The notes beneath the pieces were generated by a model that ran no database searches, was not told the DNA's origin, and saw only the letters and a program-made list of their open reading frames with translations. A program made the position numbers and the translations under genes. This document shows positions 881-57,261 of a stretch of 64,000 bases of DNA, in pieces (positions within the stretch are counted from its first letter, which is position 1; every line of letters begins with the position of its first letter). The DNA lies in IMG/VR virus record IMGVR_UViG_3300048693_000367, positions 1 to 64,000 of that record, one strand, 5' to 3'. This DNA is from a virus. Taxonomy: Duplodnaviria; Caudoviricetes.

Positions 881-1235
881 GGGCGAGTAAAGGTTTCGAC
901 TACATAAATAAGATTATGTTAGCAAGTAGTGGTTGGTAGAAGGGCCACTATAAAAATCTACTAAACGCTTTAACTGGCGAAACACAGTTAGCACTTGCTG
1001 CCTGATAAAAAAGCGTAGCAACAGACTGCGATACCGAATGGGGGTAGGGATCAAAAGTCTGTCGTTAAATCCCTCTGCACTTACAATGTCCAACGGGTTG
1101 TAGGTTAAGAGCAGTTGGTAAGACGGGATTAGTCTTGTTTGTTCTGTAAGCCCGTTTAATTTATGAACAAAATAAACTTGTAGAAAATATAATTTGAAGT
1201 ATGATAGGACGGGGATTCGATTTCCCCCTCGTCCA
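881..1235 (+). ncRNA. ssrA: tmRNA, tag peptide (A)GETQLALAA
   Basis: 5' GGGCGAGTAAAGGTTTCGAC; 3' GGACGGGGATTCGATTTCCCCCTCGTCCA; acceptor stem with G3-U70 alanine identity pair; tag ORF 976-1005 after TAACT, ending ALAA-stop. Confidence 0.95.
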
Positions 1236-1419
1236 CTTAAAGGGGTAACTTATGAGTTTCTGGAAAAAAATATTAGATAAATATAGAAACAAAAAAAAGA
1301 AAGATTCAAATGCCTTATTGGAAAATAAATATCTTCAACAACTTCAAAATAAACTAAAACTAAACAAATACAAAGATAAAAGTTAGACCTGTCAAGTCTC
1401 AACAGCAGATTACCGATAC

Positions 1420-8322: not shown

Positions 8323-11001
8323 ATGAAGTTGGCAGATCGCACAGTTGAAGTTCATAGTGCTGGTATTAGTAGTGCGAATCAGTTTACTATTGCACAAACC
8401 AGTAAAATGTTTAAGATTTTGTCGGATTCTCTTTATTCCGACAAAGTAATGGCAGTTATTCGTGAACTTGCCACAAATGCTTATGATAGTCATGTTAGTG
8501 CTGGCAATAAGAATCCTTTCTCTGTAAAGTTGCCAACCGCTGCTGATCCTAATTTTAGCGTGCGTGATTATGGCACTGGTCTTAGTCAAAAAGATATGGA
8601 GCATCTGTATACAACTTACGGTGCGTCCAATAAGAATGATAGTAATGACTTTGTTGGTTGTCTTGGTCTAGGTTCTAAGAGTCCGTTTGCTTATACCAAG
8701 AGTTTTACTACCACTTCTTATTTTAATGGCACTCAATATACTTATATTGCCGCTATTGATGATGCTGGTGTTCCTACTCTGAACCTTATTCATTCGTGCG
8801 AAACATCCGAACCTAATGGTCTTGAGATTAGTTTTGCTGTTAAGCAATATGACTTTACAGAGTTTAGTCAGAAGGCTATTAGGGTTTTTCATTATTTTAG
8901 AATTAAGCCAATTATTACTGGTGGAGTTCATTGGGATTTCACTAAGGATTATGACAATAAAAATATTGTTATTAGTGGTGAAGGATGGAGGGTCTGCCGC
9001 CTAAATAATGATACTAGACTTTTCCCGAACCATCATCACAAGATTAATAGTGGTGTTATTGCTCTGATGGGTAATATCGCCTATCCTGTTCAGGTAGAAA
9101 ATCTGATCGGTGAAGAGAAGGCTGAAACTCCAGACCATATTGCTCGTTGGAATAGGGCTTTTAACAAGGCGGATATTGCGTCTTGGAAGAGTTTTGTTGG
9201 CGAAGTAATTAATCATGGTCTGTATCTTGAGTTGGATTTTGGTATTGGCGAACTTGAAATGGATGTTAGTCGAGAAGGTTTGCAGTATACCAAAGATGTA
9301 ATCAAGAATCTTCGTCGAAAGACTCAGGAGATTTTTGCAGAACTAAAGGATATGTTTTCGGAAAAGATCGCCTCTGCTAAAACTAAGGTGGAAGCAATCA
9401 CTACCTATTATCAGTTGAACGACCTTGCTGGTGGATGGGGCGTTGGTGCTTCATGGACTGATAGTAATGGCAAGGTACATGATATTAGTTCAGGTTCTGA
9501 TCTGGAGTATAAGTTTAAGAAGAGTAAGAATCTGTATGTCTTTAATTATCGTACAGCGGGCTATCGTTCTCGTCGTATGGTTTATTTGACAGATAGAATT
9601 CATCACGAAACTCTTACTGGTAAGGGAGCCGCATATTGGAATTCCACAAGAAAGAGTGGAGAAATGAAATTCTTCTACTGTGATATGGCAGCAGTAGAAA
9701 CAGCAAAGAAGATTGCCACAAAGTATTCAAATCAAAATGATTGTTTTGTATACCTTATGGTAGACACAGAAGATCACAAAAATGTTACTAAGGGTTTTGA
9801 TGATCTAGTGTCTGATGTTGGAGAGGATAATGTACTCAATATATCAGACTATCGTGATCTTATTAAGTCAACACCAAAGAATAAGGGAAGTAAGGGTAGT
9901 AAGGGTAGTGTCAGCGATCAAGATGTTTTCTTGATTATTGGTGACCAAAAGAATACCAGTCCTTTGACTATTGGTTATAATTCTTCTCCGTATATGAGAA
10001 GCATGACAACTGATCGTCTGGATGACTTTTTGGAAGAGGACACTATCGTATATGTTCCTATTCTACGATATGCTTCTACAACTAATTTTCCATCAGTAAC
10101 TGAAATCTATAAGCAATTGTCTGGTGACAATATCAAGAGAATTCCAGATTTTCTTGGTGATACAAATATCTATGCTATCAAGCATAATTTTGTACAGAAA
10201 CTAGTCAATGAAGGATACAACCTTGTGGATTTTAATACTTGGATGCAAGAGCGTCTAAAGGATTATAATAAGAACAAGTTTGCTGACATGATTAAGTTTA
10301 ATACTATGGTGGAGAATTGTAAGAAAGAATTGTCTAGCGAAGATAGAACCACTTCAGATTACTATGGAAGAGGTTCAACAGACAAGACTGTTCTGTATCA
10401 TATTCTTAATATCTTTGGTCTGGAATATGAAAAGTATATTCCTAACAAGGAATTGGTCAAGTGTCTAGATAGTCTAATGGTTATGGAGTTTTTTGCGGAT
10501 ACTATTCATCGAGATAACTTTGATATGAGTAGATTTTCTGCCAAAGATTATTATGGTCTAATTACCAGACTATTGAGCGACATTGGAATCAATGGACTTG
10601 ATAGTAAAGAGATTAAGACCATGAATATCGCATATAATACTATTCTACATATGCTCGCTTGTTTGTATCATCTTGAGACTGACAACAAAGCATATGAAAA
10701 ATATACAGATATTATTAAGAGTAATTCTGGTGATTTGTACAAGATGCCCAGCATGGATACGATAAGAAATACTTTGAAAGTGGAACTTGACAAGAACCCC
10801 ATGCTCAAGTATATTATTGCCAGTGTCAGTGTTGATGGCAACATCAGAAGTCTGAACAAAAACCCAAATCCTCTAAAACAGGTTGAGGGTAATGGTAGTC
10901 GATATCATTACTATGGCAATACTGGTGGTAGAGAAAGTTGGTTTCAAAAACTGGATGATGTGGAGTCATTCAGACAACAATTGAGTAGCACAATCGGTTA
11001 A
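8323..11001 (+). CDS. rIIA: rIIA-like protein (N-terminal GHKL ATPase)
   Basis: LSDSLYSDK..AVIRELATNAYDSH, VRDYGTGLS, GCLGLGSKSPFAY, SREGLQY; followed by an rIIB-like gene. Confidence 0.9.
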   Translation: MKLADRTVEVHSAGISSANQFTIAQTSKMFKILSDSLYSDKVMAVIRELATNAYDSHVSAGNKNPFSVKLPTAADPNFSVRDYGTGLSQKDMEHLYTTYGASNKNDSNDFVGCLGLGSKSPFAYTKSFTTTSYFNGTQYTYIAAIDDAGVPTLNLIHSCETSEPNGLEISFAVKQYDFTEFSQKAIRVFHYFRIKPIITGGVHWDFTKDYDNKNIVISGEGWRVCRLNNDTRLFPNHHHKINSGVIALMGNIAYPVQVENLIGEEKAETPDHIARWNRAFNKADIASWKSFVGEVINHGLYLELDFGIGELEMDVSREGLQYTKDVIKNLRRKTQEIFAELKDMFSEKIASAKTKVEAITTYYQLNDLAGGWGVGASWTDSNGKVHDISSGSDLEYKFKKSKNLYVFNYRTAGYRSRRMVYLTDRIHHETLTGKGAAYWNSTRKSGEMKFFYCDMAAVETAKKIATKYSNQNDCFVYLMVDTEDHKNVTKGFDDLVSDVGEDNVLNISDYRDLIKSTPKNKGSKGSKGSVSDQDVFLIIGDQKNTSPLTIGYNSSPYMRSMTTDRLDDFLEEDTIVYVPILRYASTTNFPSVTEIYKQLSGDNIKRIPDFLGDTNIYAIKHNFVQKLVNEGYNLVDFNTWMQERLKDYNKNKFADMIKFNTMVENCKKELSSEDRTTSDYYGRGSTDKTVLYHILNIFGLEYEKYIPNKELVKCLDSLMVMEFFADTIHRDNFDMSRFSAKDYYGLITRLLSDIGINGLDSKEIKTMNIAYNTILHMLACLYHLETDNKAYEKYTDIIKSNSGDLYKMPSMDTIRNTLKVELDKNPMLKYIIASVSVDGNIRSLNKNPNPLKQVEGNGSRYHYYGNTGGRESWFQKLDDVESFRQQLSSTIG

Positions 11002-11026: not shown

Positions 11027-11884
11027 ATGAGCGTTCCTTTTATGTGGGTTGATGGTAATCTGACTCTGGTGCTTAATAATAAGACTTATCAGGTCTTGCC
11101 AGATCATATTAATTACAAGACGATCCTAGAGATTCTACCAACTGCTACAGCAGATGAACTTTTGGATATTGTGGATGTGGAAAAGGCTGTTGCTAGTTTT
11201 AGTGATGGTCTTGTGGAGATTAAGAACGGCCAAGTCACCTATGAGGGCGAGGTTGTTCATGGTAGTATCAGTAAGCGTATTCTGGAGTTTATGAGCAAGG
11301 GCTTGCCTTTCCAGCCTCTTGTTAATTTCCTGAATAATCTTATGGACAATCCTAGTATGCAAAGCCAAAAGGAACTTTATGATTTCCTTGAACATGAGCA
11401 TTTACCTATTACTGAGGATGGTTTTTTCCTTGCCTATAAGGCTGTTAGGAATGATTTTAAGGACAAGTATCGTGGCGTATTTGATAATAGCGTTGGTCAA
11501 ATAGTTAAGATGCAACGAGCCAAGGTCGATGATGATCGTGCCAGAGGATGTTCTGATGGACTTCATGCTGGTGCATTGAACTATGTGGCGAGTTATGGTA
11601 GTGTCGATGCTGGTGATCGTATTGTGATCGTCAAGATTAATCCCCGTGATGTTGTTAGCGTTCCGACAGATTGTAATTGTGAGAAACTTCGCACTTGCCA
11701 ATATGAAGTTGTTGGAGAGTATCAAGGCGAACTACTCAAGCCTCTTTACGCGGCCACCTTTAGCGAGGATGAATATGCCGATGATGAAGATGATCATGAT
11801 TACGATTGGGGTTGGAATGATGATGAAGAAGATGTTGATGAAGATTATTATGCTGACGAGGAAGATTACGACGATCAGTATTGA
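11027..11884 (+). CDS. rIIB: rIIB-like protein
   Basis: ITEDGFFLAYKAV, CSDGLHAG, VKINPRDVVSVPTD, KLRTCQYEVV. Confidence 0.9.
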   Translation: MSVPFMWVDGNLTLVLNNKTYQVLPDHINYKTILEILPTATADELLDIVDVEKAVASFSDGLVEIKNGQVTYEGEVVHGSISKRILEFMSKGLPFQPLVNFLNNLMDNPSMQSQKELYDFLEHEHLPITEDGFFLAYKAVRNDFKDKYRGVFDNSVGQIVKMQRAKVDDDRARGCSDGLHAGALNYVASYGSVDAGDRIVIVKINPRDVVSVPTDCNCEKLRTCQYEVVGEYQGELLKPLYAATFSEDEYADDEDDHDYDWGWNDDEEDVDEDYYADEEDYDDQY

Positions 11885-11895
11885 TACTAAAAAAG

Positions 11896-11984
11896 AAAGT
11901 GGAGTCTGGTGACTAAGATCATAACCTCTAGTTTTTACCCATCTAACTATGTTGTGTGAGAGGGTTCGATTCCCTCCCACGTTT
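11896..11984 (+). ncRNA. tRNA-like RNA with an elongated, non-canonical anticodon arm
   Basis: T arm GAGGG-TTCGATT-CCCTC, acceptor AAAGTGG/CCACGTT, D-like TCT-GGTGACTA-AGA, long CATAAC..TAGTT/AACTA..GTTGTG stem. Confidence 0.55.
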
Positions 11985-11998
11985 TTAAAGGATAAATA

Positions 11999-12406
11999 AT
12001 GCACGAAGATTATGACAATGAATATGATGATGATGAATATGATTACGATCATCCTTCATTAAATCCATACCAATGGTTTTTTAAGTTTGATGTTGGTCAG
12101 GATAGTCCATTGTCGTCTTGGATATCTGATCTTATTAATAGTGTAATGAATAATGATTTTGATATTCAAAATATTCCTGCTTTTCCTGTTAACAAGTTTC
12201 CTGTGAATAGTTGGAATCCCGATGCTGGTAAGGGTAAAATCTTCCAGTATTTGGGATCCAATTATAATGGTGAACCAATATGGAAAAGTAAATATTTTAT
12301 CCATGATGAATTACAATCAGAATATATTAATCATTTAAGTAGTCATGCCGCATATTTTGTAAAACAACCATCGTATTATAAGTCTTTATATGAAATTCTA
12401 AATTAG
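11999..12406 (+). CDS. hypothetical protein
   Basis: ORF with AAGGA RBS. Confidence 0.65.
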   Translation: MHEDYDNEYDDDEYDYDHPSLNPYQWFFKFDVGQDSPLSSWISDLINSVMNNDFDIQNIPAFPVNKFPVNSWNPDAGKGKIFQYLGSNYNGEPIWKSKYFIHDELQSEYINHLSSHAAYFVKQPSYYKSLYEILN

Positions 12407-12415
12407 AAAATATTA

Positions 12416-12844
12416 ATGAATAATCAATGGTATGCAATAAATAATTTTGAAGAATTTATTAATGCCTCTAGAGCATTAATCTTTAATAGTTTTGGTAAAA
12501 GTGTAGATGATTCTGATCAAGATCCTATTGATAGTCTAATAAATTGTACTCAACAATCAGATAAAGAAGAACTAGACAAATCATTATCATATGATGAGTC
12601 TGCTGTTATAGCCAAAACAATTTTTACATTTGATCAAGATAAATACTTAGTAAGCGATAAAGATTTTATGAAATTTTTAGAACTTCTAAACGATAGACTA
12701 GTCAGTAATATTTTAAATAACTTGGCAAACATGGGTCTAGTAGAATCAGCATATGACAATGATTCAAATGACTTTGTTTTTTGGATAAAAGATGAACATA
12801 AAGAAGACATCAAAAAAATTATTGAAAATCCAGAAACCGATTGA
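12416..12844 (+). CDS. hypothetical protein
   Basis: ORF in operon context. Confidence 0.7.
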   Translation: MNNQWYAINNFEEFINASRALIFNSFGKSVDDSDQDPIDSLINCTQQSDKEELDKSLSYDESAVIAKTIFTFDQDKYLVSDKDFMKFLELLNDRLVSNILNNLANMGLVESAYDNDSNDFVFWIKDEHKEDIKKIIENPETD

Positions 12845-13187
12845 GTACGACATTCATCTGAAATATAGATGTAAAAAATGTGCTCAAGATCATTGGCTAT
12901 CTTTAAATGAGGCATCTACCAAAAATTTTAAAGTAGTCTGCTGCTGTGGTGAAGTGTTTGGCGTTAGGCTAGTAAAAGGCTTTAAACTTAAATACGAACC
13001 ACAGACCACTAAAAAGATACATAAAATTCCGGTTGATCTACTGGACAAGTCTGTTAAATTATTGGTTGGTTATGGATTTACCAACACAGAAGCAACCGAT
13101 TTAATACAGACTTCTTATATGAAAAATCCTAATGATGATTTTGCGTCTTTGGTTAAACAAACTTTGGCATCAATGAGGAACGACTAA
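12792..13187 (+). CDS. Zn-ribbon protein with a RuvA domain III-like C-terminus
   Basis: CKKC...CCCG, then KSVKLLVGYGFTNTEATDLI...DFASLVKQTL; stop overlaps ruvB start; true start may be slightly downstream. Confidence 0.6.
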   Translation: MNIKKTSKKLLKIQKPIEYDIHLKYRCKKCAQDHWLSLNEASTKNFKVVCCCGEVFGVRLVKGFKLKYEPQTTKKIHKIPVDLLDKSVKLLVGYGFTNTEATDLIQTSYMKNPNDDFASLVKQTLASMRND

Positions 13188-14086
13188 TGGCAACTAATAT
13201 TATGCGACCCACAACTTTTGAGGATGTTATAGGCCAACAAGATGTTGTATCACGACTCCGTATCGTGGTGAGAGGCTGTTTAAACTCACAGGGGGTGATG
13301 CCCCATGTTTTAATAGATGGGCCACCGGGGCTTGGTAAAACAACCATAGCGGGTGCTATAGCCAGTGAGTTGGATACCAACCTATACACTGTGAACGCGG
13401 CAAACATTAGAAGTGTCAAGAATATTCTACCATATCTTATGGGTATAGAGGCAAAGTCTGTGCTATTTATAGATGAGATTCATAGGCTTCCTAAGATAGT
13501 AGAAGAATTCTTATATCCAGTAATGGAAGATTTTACGCTTAATATTACTCTGGATACTAAACCAGAAATTATTGACCTACCAATGTTCACTATTATTGGT
13601 GCTACAACTAGTGGTGGTAGTCTAAGCCAGCCATTTTATGATCGTTTCACAATAAAAGAACATCTTTCTTTTTATACCCCTGATGAGTTAGCCGAACTAG
13701 CCGGATTGAACGCAAATAAACTCGGACTAATCATTGACAAGTCTGATCTACTAGAAATAGCAAAAAGAAGCAAAGGCACACCAAGAATTCTAAATGCTAG
13801 ACTACAGTGGTATAAAAATTACACGGCATTTTATGAGAATCAAAAGACAGATATTGATGAAATATTTAACAGTCAGGGTATTGATAGTAGAGGATTAGAT
13901 GCTTATGATAGACTATATTTGGATGTGTTACAAAAATCCAGATGCAATCCTTTAGGGCTAAAAAGCATATCTTCTATGACGGGAATCGCAATTGAAACGA
14001 TAGAAAATAGTATAGAACCATATTTAATTAGAGAAAAATTTGTTATTAGAACACCGAAAGGTCGAGTAATAGGAAACAAAAAATGA
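13187..14086 (+). CDS. ruvB: Holliday junction branch migration ATPase RuvB
   Basis: MRPTTFEDVIGQ, GPPGLGKTT, LFIDEIHRL, LYPVMEDF, GATT, GTPRI, IEPYL, RTPKGR. Confidence 0.95.
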   Translation: MATNIMRPTTFEDVIGQQDVVSRLRIVVRGCLNSQGVMPHVLIDGPPGLGKTTIAGAIASELDTNLYTVNAANIRSVKNILPYLMGIEAKSVLFIDEIHRLPKIVEEFLYPVMEDFTLNITLDTKPEIIDLPMFTIIGATTSGGSLSQPFYDRFTIKEHLSFYTPDELAELAGLNANKLGLIIDKSDLLEIAKRSKGTPRILNARLQWYKNYTAFYENQKTDIDEIFNSQGIDSRGLDAYDRLYLDVLQKSRCNPLGLKSISSMTGIAIETIENSIEPYLIREKFVIRTPKGRVIGNKK

Positions 14087-14463
14087 AATTCATTCTATTC
14101 TCAATATTTGCTTTATTACTATCGTCCATAACATATGCTGTTGAACCGCCCGTTTTTGTATATGATATGGTAGATGCTTTAGCGTTGTCAGAAAATACTA
14201 ATAAACAAATACTAGTAGTATTTACAGCAGATTGGTGCAAACAATGTCAGATTATGAAAAAAGACATTACTGATAATCCAGGTATGGTTTCTGATACAAT
14301 AGTTTGTTATTTAAATCTTGATTCCAATCAAGCCCTAGCAAAAGAATATAATGTCAAATTTATTCCAGACTATTGTATCCTAAGAAAGACCATTCAAGTT
14401 AGAAGGCAGCGTGGATATACTACAAAAGAAAAATTTATTAAATGGTTTCAAGATGACAAATAG
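14083..14463 (+). CDS. exported thioredoxin-fold protein
   Basis: Signal peptide; FTADWCKQC. Confidence 0.8.
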   Translation: MKFILFSIFALLLSSITYAVEPPVFVYDMVDALALSENTNKQILVVFTADWCKQCQIMKKDITDNPGMVSDTIVCYLNLDSNQALAKEYNVKFIPDYCILRKTIQVRRQRGYTTKEKFIKWFQDDK

Positions 14464-14987: not shown

Positions 14988-15308
14988 TTGTATGGTATAA
15001 ATAATCCTTTTTATGGGAAAAAACATACAAAAACCCTAAAGAAAAAATTATCAGTTATTGCTAAAACCCGAACAGGTAATAAAAATGCAAATTATGGTAA
15101 TCAATATTCTACAGAAACACGAATTAAAGCTGGACATAATAAAAAAACTAAACTAACAAAACAAAAGGTATACAGAATTCTCAATATTAAAAATAAGACA
15201 CACCAAGAAATAGCAGATATATACAATGTGTCAAGAAGCGTTATTACTAGAATTAAAAACGGTAGTCGCTGGGGCTTAATAACTAATATTAAAGGAGATA
15301 ATATATGA
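14988..15308 (+). pseudogene. homing endonuclease DNA-binding remnant (NUMOD3 + HTH)
   Basis: NNPFYGKKHT NUMOD3 motif and THQEIADIYNVSRSVITRIKNG HTH; no nuclease domain; TTG start. Confidence 0.65.
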
Positions 15309-16312
15309 GTGGACGTGGATTAGATGTGGGGACATCTTATATAGTATTATCAACAGATAAACCCGATGGCACTGTTGAATATAAAGATTTTAGAGATGCT
15401 TTTTATATTATTAAACCAACAACACCTGTTGCTACAAAAATGATAGAAAAGGGCTTGTCCGGTAAAACTTTTATTAAAGATATAGATGGCTCTTTTATTC
15501 TTCTAGGAAAAGACGCTATCGAAAAGGCTATAGAAAGAAATGATACGGCTAAACGACCAATGTATAGGGGCGTAGTATCTGCAAAAGAAAAAGATGCTAA
15601 AAGAATTCTAGCCTTTATTCTTAAAGAGGTTGCTGGTCAAGCGTCCGAACAAAATGAAAAATTAGTATTTTGCGTTCCAGCACAACCAGTAGATCAAGAT
15701 GATGATGATTTCGACGTTGGATATCATGAAGATATTGTCAAAACAGTATTAGCAGAATGTGGGTATGATGCAAGATCAATTAATGAAGCAGAAGCATTAT
15801 GCTATGCTGAACTTGATAATGATGATTATACTGGTATAGCAATTAGTTGTGGTGCTGGCATGACAAATATTTGTGTTATGTTAAACGGCGAACCAACAGT
15901 AGTCTTTAGCACCACCAAGTCAGGCGACTGGGTTGATCGTATGAGCGCCGTGGCGACCGGAGAACCCGATAGTGTTGTTCAAGCAGAGAAGGAGGCTGGA
16001 GGTTTTAAAGTTGGCGAACCAAACGAAAATCCAGTGTTGTCTGCCGTGTCAGCGTATTATGATCGCCTCATAGAATATACTGCCAAACAACTATCAAGCG
16101 CATTATCTGATCACAAATCGCTTCCAAAATTTAAAAATCCATTAACAATTGTGGTAGCTGGTGGTACTTCTCAAGCAGATGGGTATATAGATTTATTTAC
16201 TAAAAAATTAATAGAAAATAATTTTCCATTACAAATAAAAGAGGTTAGACACGCAACAGATCCTTTGCACGCGGTTTCTAAGGGATGTTTAATAGCAGCG
16301 AAAGTGTTGTAA
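15305..16312 (+). CDS. actin-like ATPase (MreB/FtsA/ParM superfamily)
   Basis: GLDVGTS (phosphate 1), INEAEA (connect 1), SCGAGMTN (phosphate 2), VAGGTS (adenosine), DPLHAVSKG. Confidence 0.85.
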   Translation: MSGRGLDVGTSYIVLSTDKPDGTVEYKDFRDAFYIIKPTTPVATKMIEKGLSGKTFIKDIDGSFILLGKDAIEKAIERNDTAKRPMYRGVVSAKEKDAKRILAFILKEVAGQASEQNEKLVFCVPAQPVDQDDDDFDVGYHEDIVKTVLAECGYDARSINEAEALCYAELDNDDYTGIAISCGAGMTNICVMLNGEPTVVFSTTKSGDWVDRMSAVATGEPDSVVQAEKEAGGFKVGEPNENPVLSAVSAYYDRLIEYTAKQLSSALSDHKSLPKFKNPLTIVVAGGTSQADGYIDLFTKKLIENNFPLQIKEVRHATDPLHAVSKGCLIAAKVL

Positions 16313-16843: not shown

Positions 16844-17575
16844 ATGTTAAAAATATTATTTATGTTATTATTATTAATAGCTAGCATAGTTAATGCTGGA
16901 ACTATAGACCCAGAGGTTCCCGATCATAAATATACAGAATATGCCAAAGATTTTAATTATGTGGTTAGTCTATGTGGAAAAGGATCAGACGATAAAAACT
17001 ATTGTGCATCAGCAGTTGTTATTAAACCATTTTATATTCTAACAGCTGCCCATGTTATTAAGGATGCTCGTAGTGGAACGATAGTTGTAGACAACAAAAA
17101 ATATGATATTGAATATTTTAATTATCCCAATGAATATGAAGACAATAAATTTGGACAATATGATATTGCTATAGGTAAATTAAAGGATTCAGTTCAGTTA
17201 GAATTTTATCCACCATTATATAAAGATCGTGATGAGGCTGGTAAAATATGTTGTATATCTGGATTTGGATTAACTGGCACATTTAATACCGGGGCTATAA
17301 TCTCTGATAACAAACGTAGGGCAGGGTCGAATATTATTGATCATATAGATAGACATCTTTTAATATGCTCTCCATCAAAATCTAAAATGAAAACTAGTCT
17401 AGAATTTCTAATAGCGGTCGGAGATAGTGGAGGTGGACTATTTATAGACGGAAAACTCGCTGGTATAAATTCTTGTGTTATAGCAGACAAGGCTCCTAGA
17501 TCAGACTATTTAACAGAAAGTGGTCACACAAGAATAAGCAATTTCATAGAATGGATAGAAGAGAATACTAAATAA
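16844..17575 (+). CDS. secreted trypsin-like serine protease
   Basis: Signal peptide; LTAAH, DIA, GDSGGG catalytic triad motifs. Confidence 0.9.
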   Translation: MLKILFMLLLLIASIVNAGTIDPEVPDHKYTEYAKDFNYVVSLCGKGSDDKNYCASAVVIKPFYILTAAHVIKDARSGTIVVDNKKYDIEYFNYPNEYEDNKFGQYDIAIGKLKDSVQLEFYPPLYKDRDEAGKICCISGFGLTGTFNTGAIISDNKRRAGSNIIDHIDRHLLICSPSKSKMKTSLEFLIAVGDSGGGLFIDGKLAGINSCVIADKAPRSDYLTESGHTRISNFIEWIEENTK

Positions 17576-49160: not shown

Positions 49161-52100
49161 ATGTCCGCGCTTCAAGAACTGCAAAATTATACATTTGTTA
49201 GTAAGTATGCTCGTTGGTTAGAAGATAAAAGCCGTCGTGAAACTTGGAAAGAAGCAGTCGAGCGCGTTAAAAATATGATGCATACTAAGTATGCGGATTT
49301 TGGTATTTCGGAAGAGATAAATTGGGCATATGATATGATGTACAAAAAGAAAGTACTAGGAAGTCAAAGAGCACTTCAATTTGGTGGCGACCCTATTCTT
49401 AAGAGACACGCCAAGATCTATAACTGCACCAGTTCATATTGTGATAGACTAAGATTCTTCCAAGAATGTTTTTGGTTATTATTGTGTGGTAGTGGCACAG
49501 GATTCAGCGTACAAAAACACCATGTTTCTAAACTACCAAATCTAGAACACAACCCACCAGAAGGCGAAGGAACAAAATATACGATAGATGACAGTATTGA
49601 AGGATGGGCTGATGCTCTTGGTGTTTTACTCAGCAGCTATTTTAGTAAACCTGTTGAAGAGTTTAAAAAGTATAAAAATACATACGTCGTTTTTGATTAC
49701 AGCAATATCCGTGCAAAAGGATCATCACTAGCAAGCGGAGTAGGCAAAGCCCCTGGATTTGAACCATTAGCCAATGGCTTAGAGAAGATCAGAGCATTAC
49801 TTGATCGCTGTATTGTTAATGGACAAAAGAAACTACGCCCTATTGACGCTTATGATATTGTGATGCATAGTAGTGATGCTGTATTAAGTGGTGGTGTTCG
49901 TCGTTCTGCTAGTCTTGCACTATTTAGTCCAGATGATGAAGAAATGGCGAAGGCTAAAACTGGCAACTGGTATATTGATAATCCACAAAGAGCGCGTAGT
50001 AATAATTCAGCTCTTTTATTAAAAAACGAAACAACTTTTGAAGAATTCCAAGTCCTTATGGAAAGTGTGAAAGAATTTGGAGAGCCTGGATTTATTTGGA
50101 GCGAATCCACAGAAATGATTTTTAATCCTTGTGTTGTTGACGATTCCACTGTAGTCACTGATCGTGGTTTACAGATGGTATCAGACCTAATCAACAAAGG
50201 TTTTAATGCAATAGTTGATGGAATTTCTTATCCAAGTTACAAAGGGTTTTGGAAAACCGGAACCAAACAAGTTATAGAACTTGAATTTAAATCTGGTAGA
50301 ACATTAAAAGTAACACCAAATCATAAAATTATGACCACTACTGGATGGAAAGAAGCAGGATCTATAAACTTCGGAGAATCTGTTGTTATTAATAATCATA
50401 GATCATATGATTATACAGCTAATATAAATTTTGAATCACAAGACTGGAAAAAGGGCTACTTATTAGGACTATTTTTAGGAGACGGCAACAACTCTAAGTC
50501 AGCCGCTCAGCTAAAGTGGTGGGGGGAATCAAAAGAACAATATAGAAAAGACGCTTATGATATGTTGTCTGATGTTGGATTTATCAATAATCTTCATCAT
50601 GATACACAGAGTACAGTGGCTGTCTATAGCTCAATAGAATCCAAGCAGTTAATGGATTTTGCTATCAGTAAAAATTGTATGGTTGGCACCTCAAAGAAGG
50701 TTACAAAAGAATCTGTTTGTGGTTCATGGAGTTACATCTCAGGATTGGTCGCCGGATATTTTGATGCTGACGGAACAGTTTTAGTAAATAATACAAAAGG
50801 TTCATCACTTAGAATCTCCTCGGTTCAGCTTGAAAATTTACAAAATTTACAAATAGCACTCAATTCCTTTGGTATTTATTCTAAGATTTACAAGAATCGC
50901 AGAATAGAAGGTGAAAGATCAATGCCAGACGGTAGAGGCGGCACAAAAGACTATTTCTGTCAAGCCTCTCATGAACTAGTAATTAGTAATGATAATATTG
51001 TAAGATTTGCGAAGTATATACCAATAAAAAATACTAATAAACTAGAAAAAATTCAAACGATTGTTAGCAACTATAAAAGAATGCCAAATAGAACCAATTT
51101 TACCGATATACTAATTAATAAAGTTGTAGTTGGTGAACTAGACGTTTATGATTGTACAGTAGAGAATATACATGCTTTTGACAATGACGGAGTATATGTT
51201 CATAACTGTGTGGAAATTGGTATGTGGCCAATCGACGAAGAGAGCGGCAAAAGTGGCTGGCAAGGATGCAATCTATCAACCATCAATTGCTCTAGCGTAA
51301 CAGACGAGGAAGATTTTTATGAAAGGTGCAAAGCCGCAGCTATTATAGGCACTTTACAGGCTGGTTTTACTAAGCTTGCTTATCTTGGTGACATTAGTGA
51401 AAAGATTTTTGAAAGAGAAGCTTTATTAGGCGTATCTCTAACGGGTACTATGGAAAAGCACGAATTAGTTCTTACAGAAAAAGTATTAACTAAAGGCGCA
51501 AAAATCGCAGTAGAAACCAACAAATCTATTTCTGAAAAGATTAATATCAATCAGGCTGCTAGAGTAACATGCCTAAAACCAGAAGGCACCAGTAGTAGTA
51601 TGTTGGGTACAAGTTCTGGTATCCACCCACACCATGCTAAACGATATATTCGCCATGTACAGGCAAATATTTTAGAAGCACCATACCAACACTTTAAGAA
51701 ATTAAACCCGCAAGCCTGCGAAAAATCATCGTGGTCGGCAAATAACACCGATGAGGTAATTAAATTTCCCATAGAAGTACCAGATGGTGCCAAACTTAAA
51801 AATCAATTACCAGCAGTAGAAATGCTTTCAGTGGTAAAAGAAACACAAAAAAATTGGGTCAACTCTGGAAAAAATAAAGCATTATGTACTCAGGATTATC
51901 TAAGTCATAATGTGAGCAATACGGTAACAGTAAAACCAGATGAATGGAATGAGGTTACCAAATATATCTATGATAATAGAAAATATTTTGCTGGCATATC
52001 TCTTATTCCACAAAGCGGAGACAAGGATTATCCACAAGCACCATTTACTACTGTTTATACCAGTAGAGAAATTGTTAAAGAATATGGGGATGCTGCTTTG

Positions 52101-52430
52101 TGGTGTTCTGGTTTAATAGAATTAGGATTAAATGCATTTGATAATAATCTTTGGGCAGCATGTGATTATGTAACATTGAATCAGGCGCACAAAGATCATC
52201 CCGAATCAAAGCTTGTGTTTGTTACCAAAATGAAGAATTTTGCTGGCAAATATTTTGATGGAGACGTAAGAAGACTAACTTATTGCATGAAAGATGTTTA
52301 TAATTGGAAGATTTATTGTGATTTATTTAATAGTTTCAAAAAGGTTGATTACACACAACTATCAGAAACAGAGGATAACACAGTCGGGATCGAGGAAATT
52401 AGTTGTGCCGGTGGCGCTTGTCTAATTTAA
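49161..52430 (+). CDS. nrdJ: class II (B12-dependent) ribonucleotide reductase with intein
   Basis: YNCTS, GVRRSA, GEPG, NP|CVEI, CNLS, TCLKPEGT, C-terminal CAGGAC. Confidence 0.92.
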   Translation: MSALQELQNYTFVSKYARWLEDKSRRETWKEAVERVKNMMHTKYADFGISEEINWAYDMMYKKKVLGSQRALQFGGDPILKRHAKIYNCTSSYCDRLRFFQECFWLLLCGSGTGFSVQKHHVSKLPNLEHNPPEGEGTKYTIDDSIEGWADALGVLLSSYFSKPVEEFKKYKNTYVVFDYSNIRAKGSSLASGVGKAPGFEPLANGLEKIRALLDRCIVNGQKKLRPIDAYDIVMHSSDAVLSGGVRRSASLALFSPDDEEMAKAKTGNWYIDNPQRARSNNSALLLKNETTFEEFQVLMESVKEFGEPGFIWSESTEMIFNPCVVDDSTVVTDRGLQMVSDLINKGFNAIVDGISYPSYKGFWKTGTKQVIELEFKSGRTLKVTPNHKIMTTTGWKEAGSINFGESVVINNHRSYDYTANINFESQDWKKGYLLGLFLGDGNNSKSAAQLKWWGESKEQYRKDAYDMLSDVGFINNLHHDTQSTVAVYSSIESKQLMDFAISKNCMVGTSKKVTKESVCGSWSYISGLVAGYFDADGTVLVNNTKGSSLRISSVQLENLQNLQIALNSFGIYSKIYKNRRIEGERSMPDGRGGTKDYFCQASHELVISNDNIVRFAKYIPIKNTNKLEKIQTIVSNYKRMPNRTNFTDILINKVVVGELDVYDCTVENIHAFDNDGVYVHNCVEIGMWPIDEESGKSGWQGCNLSTINCSSVTDEEDFYERCKAAAIIGTLQAGFTKLAYLGDISEKIFEREALLGVSLTGTMEKHELVLTEKVLTKGAKIAVETNKSISEKININQAARVTCLKPEGTSSSMLGTSSGIHPHHAKRYIRHVQANILEAPYQHFKKLNPQACEKSSWSANNTDEVIKFPIEVPDGAKLKNQLPAVEMLSVVKETQKNWVNSGKNKALCTQDYLSHNVSNTVTVKPDEWNEVTKYIYDNRKYFAGISLIPQSGDKDYPQAPFTTVYTSREIVKEYGDAALWCSGLIELGLNAFDNNLWAACDYVTLNQAHKDHPESKLVFVTKMKNFAGKYFDGDVRRLTYCMKDVYNWKIYCDLFNSFKKVDYTQLSETEDNTVGIEEISCAGGACLI
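50130..51206 (+). mobile_element. intein with LAGLIDADG endonuclease in NrdJ (359 aa)
   Basis: CVVDDSTVVT...TPNHKI...LLGLFLGDG...GYFDADG...VYDCTV...VHN|C. Confidence 0.93.
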
Positions 52431-54806: not shown

Positions 54807-55235
54807 ATGTCTGCTAAAAAATATCCATCGAAATATTCGAATGGCAAAAGTGTAACTTCTGCTCAGTATATCACAGAATTAATTTGTGAAAAATGGGCAA
54901 AAAAGGAAAAGAAAGATTTACACTATAGATTTTGGTTAACTCCAGAGTGGGAAAAATATTATCGTAACCAGATACCTTCTGCAAATGCATTATTAAAAAA
55001 ATACTCTGATACAGCGATTATTAGAGCATTGAATAATCCAAAAACAGAAAGAATATACTCACTGCGAGCACCACACCTTCCCGCTATCATAGAACAAGAG
55101 CAGAGACATATAGAGACAGAGAATCAAACCCTGTCTAAGGTTTATGAAAGACCAGAGAATGTATCATTTGGTCACACGCCACCAATCAAACGTAATATTA
55201 TTTCAAAATTAAAGGATCTAGATAATGAGTCTTAA
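54807..55235 (+). CDS. hypothetical protein
   Basis: ORF in operon. Confidence 0.65.
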   Translation: MSAKKYPSKYSNGKSVTSAQYITELICEKWAKKEKKDLHYRFWLTPEWEKYYRNQIPSANALLKKYSDTAIIRALNNPKTERIYSLRAPHLPAIIEQEQRHIETENQTLSKVYERPENVSFGHTPPIKRNIISKLKDLDNES

Positions 55236-57261
55236 AGAAGATGTTGTAAAAAACTTTGGCGATGATATTATTCTTACTGGCAATGCTATTGTTGATCGCA
55301 AGAGTATAATTATTCCGGTTAGCCCATCATTAGACATAGTATTAAATGGCGGTATACCAGAAGGTAGTTTCGTTGTACTAACAGGTCAACCAAAATGTGG
55401 TAAAGATTTAGCAATTAGCGAAACAGTTTATACTCCAAACGGTCCAATAAAAATGGGCGATATAAAAGTTGGAGATATTGTATGCAACGCTAGTGGCGGA
55501 ACGTCGAGGGTCATAGGTGTTTATCCTCAAGGCAAAAAAGATGTCTATAAAGTCACCTTTAATGATGGAACAACGTCGTTGTGCGGACTTGAGCATAACT
55601 GGACAGTATCTCGAAATAATAGAAACACAAAATATTTTACCATCACACTACAAGAAATTATAAAAGAAGGATTATATTATAGCGATAGACCAAAATGGAA
55701 AATTCCAATAACTAAACCTGTTTATTTTAAGCAAAAAAATAAGCTATCGATAGATCCTTATATATTAGGATGTCTACTTGGTGATGGTGGCTTAACACAA
55801 AAAACTCCTAGATTTACAACATCAGATAAATTTATAGCTAAAAAATTTCAAAGGTTTTGTCAAAATAGAGGATTGTTTTTTAAGCATATTAGTAAGTATG
55901 ATTATAGTATAAACGGAAATGTCGAATCTAGTACTCTTGTCAAAAACACACTAACAAAAGACCTAAAAAAAATGGGACTTATGGGAAAATCTTCCCACAC
56001 AAAGTTCATACCCACATCATACAAATATGCGTCTATTCAAAATAGATTAAATCTTATCAAAGGACTCATGGACACAGATGGACATAACGATCATGGAAAA
56101 AGAGCAGAATATACCTCTACCTCTACTCGTTTAATAAAAGATGTGAAAGAAGTCTTAGAAAGTTTAGGATACTCTGTTGCCACTAAACAAAGAACAACCC
56201 GATGCAATAATAAATCATTTATATCATATAGATTATATATTCATGGAGATGACATAGATAGGCTTTTTTCGTTGCCCAGAAAAATCAGTGGACATAAAAG
56301 ACAAAAGCCAATATTACATAGAACCATTAAAAATATTGAAAAAATGCAACCAGTATTGACCCAGTGTATAGAATTAGATTCTTGCGATGGATTATTTTTA
56401 ACTAATAATTTTATTGTAACACACAATACAACAACATCTTTAGATTTTGCCGCAACCGCTCAAAGACCAGAGTATCAGGGCGGATTAAAAACTCCACGCG
56501 AAGTGTACTACCTAAACATTGAAGGTAGACTGAAGAAGCGAGACTTAGAAGGAATACCAGGACTTAATCTAGATAGATTTCATGTTATTGGTAGTCAACA
56601 AGGTAAGATTTTACACGCAGAAGAATATTTACAGATTGCAGAAAAAATTATTAATGAAATTCCAGGATCAGTTCTTATCATAGACTCTTATTCCGCTTTG
56701 TGTACAGAAGCAGAAATTACCAGTGAAATGGATAAAATGCAAAGAGCAGATGGTGCTAAGTTGCTTGCCAAGTTTTGTCGTAAGGTTGCTAATGTTATTC
56801 CAGTAAATAAAAATATTGTTATTGGCATCACGCACTTAATGGGTAATCCAACCGGATATGGTGCAGAATTTAAGGAGAAGAGTGGGCAGGCCATTGCTTA
56901 TCAGACAGATATTAAACTTAGAGCAAAAACATTCAAGCCTTGGACTCTTAGTGCCGATAGTACACAAATAGGACAAGAGATCGAGTGGCAAGTTATATGC
57001 TCTGCTTTAGGGCCACCGGGAGGCAATATTACTAGTTATATTCGATATGGTCAGGGTGTTGACAAATACATGGAAGCTATTACACTGGCTTCTGATATGG
57101 GCATCATCCACAAAGGAGGCGCTTGGTATACTCTAACATCTTTAGAAGATAAGCCTAAATTTCAAGGAGCAGAAAAAGTTAGGCAATATCTATTAGAAAA
57201 TACCGATGCTTATAATGGTCTGGTAAAATCGATTAAAGAAACCATGGGCGTTAAATGCTGA
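55225..57261 (+). CDS. recA: RecA/UvsX-like recombinase with intein in the Walker A motif
   Basis: SLDIVLNGGIPEG, GQPKCGK|TTT, IIDSYSAL, KGGAWY. Confidence 0.9.
   Translation: MSLKEDVVKNFGDDIILTGNAIVDRKSIIIPVSPSLDIVLNGGIPEGSFVVLTGQPKCGKDLAISETVYTPNGPIKMGDIKVGDIVCNASGGTSRVIGVYPQGKKDVYKVTFNDGTTSLCGLEHNWTVSRNNRNTKYFTITLQEIIKEGLYYSDRPKWKIPITKPVYFKQKNKLSIDPYILGCLLGDGGLTQKTPRFTTSDKFIAKKFQRFCQNRGLFFKHISKYDYSINGNVESSTLVKNTLTKDLKKMGLMGKSSHTKFIPTSYKYASIQNRLNLIKGLMDTDGHNDHGKRAEYTSTSTRLIKDVKEVLESLGYSVATKQRTTRCNNKSFISYRLYIHGDDIDRLFSLPRKISGHKRQKPILHRTIKNIEKMQPVLTQCIELDSCDGLFLTNNFIVTHNTTTSLDFAATAQRPEYQGGLKTPREVYYLNIEGRLKKRDLEGIPGLNLDRFHVIGSQQGKILHAEEYLQIAEKIINEIPGSVLIIDSYSALCTEAEITSEMDKMQRADGAKLLAKFCRKVANVIPVNKNIVIGITHLMGNPTGYGAEFKEKSGQAIAYQTDIKLRAKTFKPWTLSADSTQIGQEIEWQVICSALGPPGGNITSYIRYGQGVDKYMEAITLASDMGIIHKGGAWYTLTSLEDKPKFQGAEKVRQYLLENTDAYNGLVKSIKETMGVKC
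55405..56427 (+). mobile_element. class 3-type intein with LAGLIDADG domain (341 aa)
   Basis: DLAISETVYTPNG start; EHNW (block B Trp), TQCI (block F Cys), VTHN|T; LGCLLGDG and GLMDTDG. Confidence 0.88.

Follow-up and report, generated by a model that had tools for sequence, protein, structure and literature searches.

How might a phage work its own RuvB motor when the gene directly in front of ruvB encodes only one of the three domains of RuvA? The question is raised by a locus at positions 12,792 to 14,086 of a 64,000-nucleotide stretch of DNA from an uncultured freshwater phage (Duplodnaviria; Caudoviricetes), which we refer to as the window and which is the first 64 kb of the 122,198-bp IMG/VR virus record IMGVR_UViG_3300048693_000367, a record estimated to be 88% complete. 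RuvAB is the textbook recombination motor. An earlier reading of this DNA from its letters (the original prediction) had proposed that the gene overlapping the ruvB start carries a RuvA domain III-like module behind an unrelated N-terminus, and that its product is a re-wired adaptor for RuvB. We refer to this gene and its product as mini-RuvA. The two genes, and the parts of the first, are the following.

12792–13187, + strand: mini-RuvA gene, an open reading frame of 131 amino acids (zinc ribbon, linker, RuvA domain III)
12852–12971, + strand: predicted four-cysteine zinc ribbon (residues 21–60; C27, C30, C50 and C52, with conserved H34, W35 and Y25)
12972–13028, + strand: variable linker (residues 61–79)
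13029–13184, + strand: RuvA domain III homologue (residues 80–131, three helices), from profile searches, hhalign, AlphaFold2 and fold searches
13187–14086, + strand: ruvB (299 amino acids), from Pfam, NCBIfam and alignments

Judging from sequence profiles and structural models, we conclude that the C-terminal 52 residues of mini-RuvA are truly homologous to RuvA domain III. In the account that we consider fairly probable, mini-RuvA would be a cut-down RuvA whose domain III docks on the phage RuvB and whose zinc ribbon tethers the motor to DNA or to a partner, the pair acting to remodel recombining DNA.

RuvA domain III homology of the mini-RuvA C-terminus

In the family alignment of mini-RuvA, a linker separates two conserved blocks, one at the N-terminus and one, about 50 residues long, at the C-terminus. 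The close homologues (n = 81) are 119–193 amino acids long, and the family as a whole comprises 496 clusters (50% identity, E ≤ 1e-3), of which the best 150 are without exception 105–184 amino acids in length. A single profile match covers both domains in 148 of these 150, the other two being an N-terminally short form and a match in two stretches. Fused forms were not found among proteins of 231–2000 amino acids, which is weak evidence, and a tblastn search for cultured relatives, with the 131-residue protein against 50,697 phage records, gave no match. One family member has been labelled a RuvABC DNA-binding subunit by the pipeline of the Joint Genome Institute. Gene callers also use an alternative start 10 codons downstream, giving a protein of 121 amino acids. 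The AlphaFold2 model of mini-RuvA has a mean predicted local distance difference test score (pLDDT) of 80.6.

The C-terminal end of mini-RuvA, which reads ...LVGYGFTNTEATDLIQTSYMKNPNDDFASLVKQTLASMRND, was held in the original prediction to fit the pattern of the RuvA C-terminal domain, and this is borne out by profile comparisons and fold searches alike. When the family profile is compared with 177,635 PDB sequences the highest-ranking entry is 1ixs_A (E 2.5e-4), which is domain III of T. thermophilus RuvA in complex with RuvB, and full-length RuvA (1ixr_A; E 0.002) takes second place. Eight of the 11 matches listed at E values up to 10, these two included, are RuvA; those from S. thermophilus and E. 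coli are below significance (E 0.3–0.8). Alignment by hhalign of the 228-sequence family alignment with RuvA sequences from database records gives a probability of 81.7%, and of 89.7% (P 1.8e-6) after the addition of E. coli RuvA to make eight RuvA sequences; the register pairs mini-RuvA residues 80–127 with E. coli RuvA residues 156–201, which correspond to domain III. As a single sequence the window protein lies below the Pfam RuvA_C gathering cut-off, and it is at the level of the profile that homology to domain III is found; one of 32 family members matches RuvA_C (2.7e-4), and RuvA_C (PF07499) is present in 50% of the members of one look-alike Atlas cluster.

The structural predictions are in keeping with these alignments. 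AlphaFold2 predicts C-terminal helices at residues 81–93, 98–111 and 117–129, with pLDDT of 86–93 over residues 81–130. The first nine Foldseek matches to this model are all RuvA (probability 0.93–0.99), with template modelling scores of 0.76–0.78 to isolated domain III, and the independent all-against-all aligner VIA-align gives Z scores of 7.9 for M. tuberculosis RuvA, 7.5 for 7pbp_G and 6.5 for 1ixs_A, the matches to RuvA domain III spanning 48–51 residues at root-mean-square deviations of 1.5–2.2 Å.

Positions of domain III that matter for RuvB are also retained. The substitutions L167A and L170A in E. coli RuvA abolish RuvB activity in vivo and leave junction binding unaffected, according to the account of Nishino et al. 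(1998) given in PMC2628435. In the hhalign register L167 corresponds to L91 of mini-RuvA, which is leucine in 208 of the 228 family sequences and methionine, phenylalanine or isoleucine in the others, and L170 corresponds to Y94 (tyrosine in 168, phenylalanine in 32 and leucine in 25). The adjacent G171 is matched by G95, a glycine in all 228, and Y172 by F96 (phenylalanine in 186, tyrosine in 40). The net charge of this domain across the family is about −1.

A basic zinc ribbon and a linker in place of domains I and II

The original prediction gave the N-terminus as CxxC...CxCG rather than oligonucleotide-binding (OB) and helix-hairpin-helix (HhH) domains, and the motifs are exactly as quoted, C27-K-K-C30 and C50-C-C52-G53. 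These four cysteines are invariant in two family alignments and are present in 225–228 of 226–228 sequences in a third. AlphaFold2 gives pLDDT of 91–93 over residues 21–60, and of 92–93 there when the N-terminal domain is folded alone, with strands at residues 22–26, 33–37, 47–49 and 55–57 (pLDDT above 90) and two cysteine knuckles situated between strands 1 and 2 and between strands 3 and 4. In this model the fold class is clearly that of a generic zinc ribbon. Fold searches return weak and mixed matches, the ZitP zinc finger being the best (probability 0.92, Z 3.5), with archaeal eS27, RNA polymerase subunit P (RpoP) and LysW among the others; in addition, Ribosomal_L44 is weakly matched by 10 of 32 family members (best E 0.0097). 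The net charge of residues 1–66 has a median of +7 across the family and ranges from +4 to +13, which is consistent with nucleic-acid binding by the ribbon.

Between the two domains, the linker varies in length among homologues, from fewer than 10 residues to about 70, contains no conserved columns, and is predicted with pLDDT of 65–76, so that the family alignment and the AlphaFold2 model both point to residues 61–79 being a disordered linker and not the HhH domain II. Because two of the three RuvA domains, I and II, are lacking, and only the linker and domain III are found, mini-RuvA is not itself a RuvA.

Coupling of mini-RuvA to ruvB

The junction between the two genes is compact, and is formed by a single short feature read from the sequence.

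13175–13189, + strand: coupling site, with GAGGA and the mini-RuvA TAA stop overlapping the ruvB ATG

The gene had been said to overlap the start of ruvB, and it does so by one base, the mini-RuvA stop TAA (13185–13187) and the ruvB ATG being merged as TAATG. The GAGGA sequence sits 8 nucleotides 5' of the ruvB ATG, inside the mini-RuvA gene. Conservation of the gene pair, which had been suggested as a check of the original prediction, is likewise found. A relative of mini-RuvA is encoded at 180 loci in IMG/VR, and in all 88 of those examined (82 first fetched and six from the most distant members, at 29–36% identity), which come from one clade, the mini-RuvA gene is directly 5' of ruvB, with a gap of −32 to +5 nucleotides in 82 loci. 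Elsewhere in the block insertions are seen between rIIB and the next gene downstream, which encodes a 135-residue product, between ruvB and the gene for an actin homologue, and in two loci (608 nucleotides) between mini-RuvA and the gene 5' of it, which encodes a 142-residue product, but none is seen between mini-RuvA and ruvB.

Across the clade RuvB is 66–97% identical and mini-RuvA 29–92% identical. Of 185,579 species genomes only three have the mini-RuvA gene, in each case on a freshwater contig from a metagenome-assembled genome (one of these is 141 kb in length), so that the family appears to be almost wholly viral. Covariation, computed as mutual information between domain III and RuvB columns over 42 paired loci, placed mini-RuvA residue 108 and RuvB M133, at the base of the presensor-1 hairpin described below, as the top pair; the sequences being few and close, we gave this no weight and made no use of it.

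The phage-encoded RuvB

By sequence, the product of the downstream gene is a real RuvB with all of its motor motifs intact, and it is apparently active. It matches RuvB_N (1.1e-44), AAA_lid_4 (2.1e-8) and RuvB_C (8e-18) in Pfam, passes the NCBIfam NF000868 cut-off (294.9 bits against 282), falls just below that of TIGR00635 (276 against 299), and aligns end to end with solved bacterial RuvBs at 183–210 bits. The best RuvB matches among the 50,697 phage records are about 40% identical and lie in bacterial-like contigs, and identity to the RuvB genes of bacterial-like database records is 36–40%. Aligned alongside RuvB sequences from four bacteria and 47 phage RuvBs, the window RuvB keeps every ATPase motif (Walker A and B, sensors 1 and 2, and the arginine finger) and the C-terminal winged helix with its RTxKGR hairpin, and its N-terminus is about 17 residues shorter but retains the (I/M)-R-P motif. 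The C-terminal hairpin contacts DNA in P. aeruginosa RuvB (PMC10071043).

The element of RuvB to which RuvA binds is the presensor-1 beta-hairpin, L135–L152 in E. coli RuvB (PMC2628435, PMC9477746), and this too can be located in the phage protein.

13538–13579, + strand: RuvB's presensor-1 beta-hairpin (residues 118–131), aligned with E. coli RuvB L135–L152

The segment that includes the helix before this hairpin retains 17 of the 19 columns at which the four bacterial sequences agree. On our reading of standard AAA+ helix numbering, this helix would be alpha-3.

A separate segment of the phage RuvB, at 13439–13507 (about residues 85–107 in E. coli), is remodelled, and retains one of the 11 columns that do not vary among the four bacterial sequences. 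It follows the second strand of the ATPase domain, and reads TSGPxLEKAGDLAAxLTNL in bacteria and IRSxKNILPYLMGI, well conserved, in the phage clade. We considered this segment as the domain III-binding helix and dropped it, as the helix described in PMC9477746 would, on the same reading of the numbering, come before the hairpin, in the segment that is conserved.

Other genes of the record

To place the pair in its genetic context we searched all six frames of the whole record with hidden Markov models, for which control genomes gave the expected matches. RuvA_N, RuvA_C, HHH_5 and RuvC are absent from the results, which extends to the full 122,198 bp the original statement that neither ruvC nor a canonical ruvA lies in the window; endonuclease VII and RusA also have no match in this 88%-complete record. 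The record does encode a RecA/UvsX-like recombinase, together with a DnaB helicase, primase, exonuclease and ATP-dependent ligase.

55225–57261: RecA/UvsX-like recombinase, a frame of 678 amino acids

The RecA match is to the C-terminal part of this frame, and its centre, which matches terminase and helicase-type profiles, is a possible intein. A second long frame, that of ribonucleotide reductase (49161–52430; 1089 amino acids), matches its family in two stretches and is possibly interrupted by an insertion such as an intein.

Two genes lie between rIIB and the mini-RuvA–ruvB pair.

11999–12406, + strand: gene for a 135-residue product of no recognised family
12416–12844, + strand: gene for a 142-residue product of no recognised family

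The 135-residue product is encoded in 84 and the 142-residue product in 85 of the 88 loci, with absences in three loci that are truncated upstream, and wherever present the two genes are collinear with the mini-RuvA–ruvB pair; the second overlaps the mini-RuvA start by 53 nucleotides. Both products have acidic stretches and neither matches a Pfam, PHROG or NCBIfam family, and the 142-residue product has only low-score, unnamed clusters in the Atlas. These two genes may belong to the same module as mini-RuvA and ruvB.

Further genes of the neighbourhood are listed below.

8323–11001: rIIA
11027–11884: rIIB
14083–14463: thioredoxin
15305–16312: Volactin-type actin homologue

The window is AT-rich, at about 30–38% G+C with richer parts at 18–22 kb and 26–28 kb, and almost all of its genes are on the + strand. 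The thioredoxin start overlaps the ruvB stop (ATGA). The N-termini of the thioredoxin and of the protein encoded at 16844–17575, which bears trypsin-type motifs (TAAHV, GDSGG), are hydrophobic and resemble signal peptides, which is unusual among phage products. The 335-residue actin-fold protein matches Pfam Volactin at 2.5e-63, above the family cut-off, is 69–96% identical across related phage loci, and is usually encoded just 3' of ruvB. The Volactin family has been described from haloarchaea. Near the start of the record are a tmRNA gene (window positions 881–1236; tag peptide GETQLALAA) and a tRNA-Ile gene (175–250; anticodon TAT). Between rIIB and the gene for the 135-residue product, at 11960–11985, there is a hairpin resembling a tRNA T-arm, GAGGGTTCGATTCCCTC, followed by a run of T. 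It scores as terminator-like, gives a match (E 0.011) to the tmRNA model at its 3' end, and is not part of a tRNA found by ARAGORN. The transcription unit of the RuvB module may begin at this hairpin.

A tethered domain III as a proposed partner for RuvB

In bacteria, according to recent cryo-EM work, domain III alone is a nucleotide-exchange factor and ATPase activator for the RuvB motor, in that it recruits and tethers RuvB, wedges the subunits apart so that ADP is released, and promotes hydrolysis from a distance (PMC9477746). Because mini-RuvA keeps this module, its hydrophobic motif and a tether, and the phage RuvB keeps the presensor-1 hairpin, we propose that domain III of mini-RuvA docks on the phage RuvB, most likely on the hydrophobic surface formed by the helix before the hairpin and by the hairpin itself. 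When docked, mini-RuvA would both regulate and anchor the motor. The flexible linker joins domain III to the small, strongly basic zinc ribbon, which stands in place of domains I and II, those that form the tetramer and bind the junction. The simplest supposition is that the ribbon holds the motor on DNA, or alternatively it might hold it on another phage protein of replication or recombination. Together with the RecA/UvsX-like recombinase, the pair would then drive branch migration or fork remodelling in recombination-dependent replication of the large phage genome.

With no tetrameric platform for the junction, the complex may act on substrates other than a RuvA-held junction, or may recognise junctions in a different way; a Holliday junction could still be its substrate. 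As to structure, the original prediction of a re-wired adaptor stands, the protein having a predicted zinc ribbon and a genuine domain III, neither OB nor HhH domains, and tight coupling to ruvB. Its functional part, that the adaptor loads RuvB onto another substrate or partner, is a reasonable inference. A bolder version, to which we would give only tentative credence, is that mini-RuvA frees RuvB altogether from Holliday-junction specificity. Monomeric domain III modules would here serve as stand-alone exchange and activating factors, with the ribbons loading the motor on duplex DNA, forks or the replisome, and RuvB would be, instead of the classical junction motor, a general phage DNA translocase for fork reversal, protein displacement or the processing of concatemers.

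Several observations weigh against docking and tethering as we propose them. On the RuvB side, the presensor-1 hairpin is present but its tip is 4–5 residues shorter, and it keeps only three of the seven hairpin columns at which the four bacterial RuvBs agree. The zinc ribbon matched no family with a known ligand in the fold searches. The record contains no match to a Holliday-junction resolvase (RuvC, endonuclease VII or RusA), so that a full junction pathway is not evident. Three further points bear on domain III and its neighbour, and these would equally suit a different explanation, namely that the C-terminal domain is a generic UBA-like three-helix bundle binding some target other than RuvB, and that its adjacency to ruvB reflects conserved synteny and not partnership. 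Mini-RuvA searched alone matches nothing in Pfam (even at E 1), PHROGs or NCBIfam; UBA, CUE and other three-helix bundles, which are common folds, reach Z 4.4–5.8, and unrelated bundles Z 5–6.5, in the same VIA-align list as RuvA; and the wider synteny is common to all 88 loci, which therefore belong to one phage clade and do not make the adjacency independent evidence. The fold match alone is not conclusive, because such bundles also score, and the matter is decided by its concordance with the sequence evidence. Three kinds of search rank RuvA domain III, and not UBA, first, the hydrophobic positions that activate RuvB are conserved, and the mini-RuvA/ruvB junction is never interrupted whereas other junctions in the block are, which together make a generic bundle seem to us unlikely.

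That domain III is the sole part of RuvA to have been kept would also be expected if mini-RuvA were a decoy and not a partner of the phage RuvB, its free domain III binding the host RuvB and either blocking the host RuvAB or hijacking its motor. The cross-complementation of RuvA and RuvB between bacterial species implies a conserved interface (PMC9477746), which such a protein could exploit. However, the constant coupling of mini-RuvA to an apparently active, phage-encoded RuvB is not readily explained in this way, and a decoy would have no need of a tethered zinc ribbon that is basic and conserved, so that we give this possibility little weight. No more probable in our view is that RuvA has been split, with domains I and II supplied by a separate protein (the 142-residue product, the 135-residue product, or host RuvA) to give a conventional RuvAB. 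The two upstream genes accompany the pair and form an overlapping block with it in almost all of the loci, as a split RuvA might require, but hhalign relates neither of their families to RuvA (P 0.56 and 0.91), they lack matches in the protein family databases, their acidic stretches are unlike a DNA-binding platform, and neither RuvA_N nor HHH_5 is found anywhere in the record. The preferred reading is still that domain III of mini-RuvA serves the phage's own RuvB.

Comparison with known systems

A literature search on RuvA, zinc ribbon, RuvB and phage found no paper describing a cut-down RuvAB, and the 221-kDa 'RuvB helicase-like' virion protein of phage PaBG is a different thing from the mini-RuvA–RuvB pair. 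One of the closest comparisons is with bacterial RuvA (E. coli; T. thermophilus, 1IXR and 1IXS; S. thermophilus, 7PBL series; P. aeruginosa, 7X7Q). Mini-RuvA resembles it in having a flexible linker followed by a three-helix domain III, in the conserved L..L/Y-G-Y/F hydrophobic motif within that domain, and in being encoded immediately 5' of ruvB and coupled to it. It differs in size (131 amino acids as against about 200) and in lacking domain I, the OB fold, and domain II with its two HhH motifs, in place of which there is a basic zinc ribbon of 40 residues; the domains for the tetramer platform and for junction binding are thus absent. The phage RuvB, for its part, has the full three-domain architecture, the ATPase motifs and the DNA-contacting C-terminal hairpin of bacterial RuvB (NF000868, TIGR00635), from which it is distinguished by being phage-encoded, by its shorter N-terminus (by about 17 residues) and presensor-1 tip (by 4–5), and by the remodelled equivalent of E. 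coli residues 85–107. In this pair, freshwater phages of a large and widespread clade have a RuvB-based system of their own.

A further comparison is with isolated RuvA domain III fragments (1IXS, 7X7P), which bind RuvB without the junction-binding core. Those fragments are laboratory constructs, whereas mini-RuvA is a natural gene product and bears a zinc ribbon. Mini-RuvA would in this sense be a natural separation-of-function variant, with domain III alone on a tether, and it could separate those functions of RuvA that need the junction-binding tetramer, such as its roles as a fulcrum and in strand separation, from those that domain III provides by itself.

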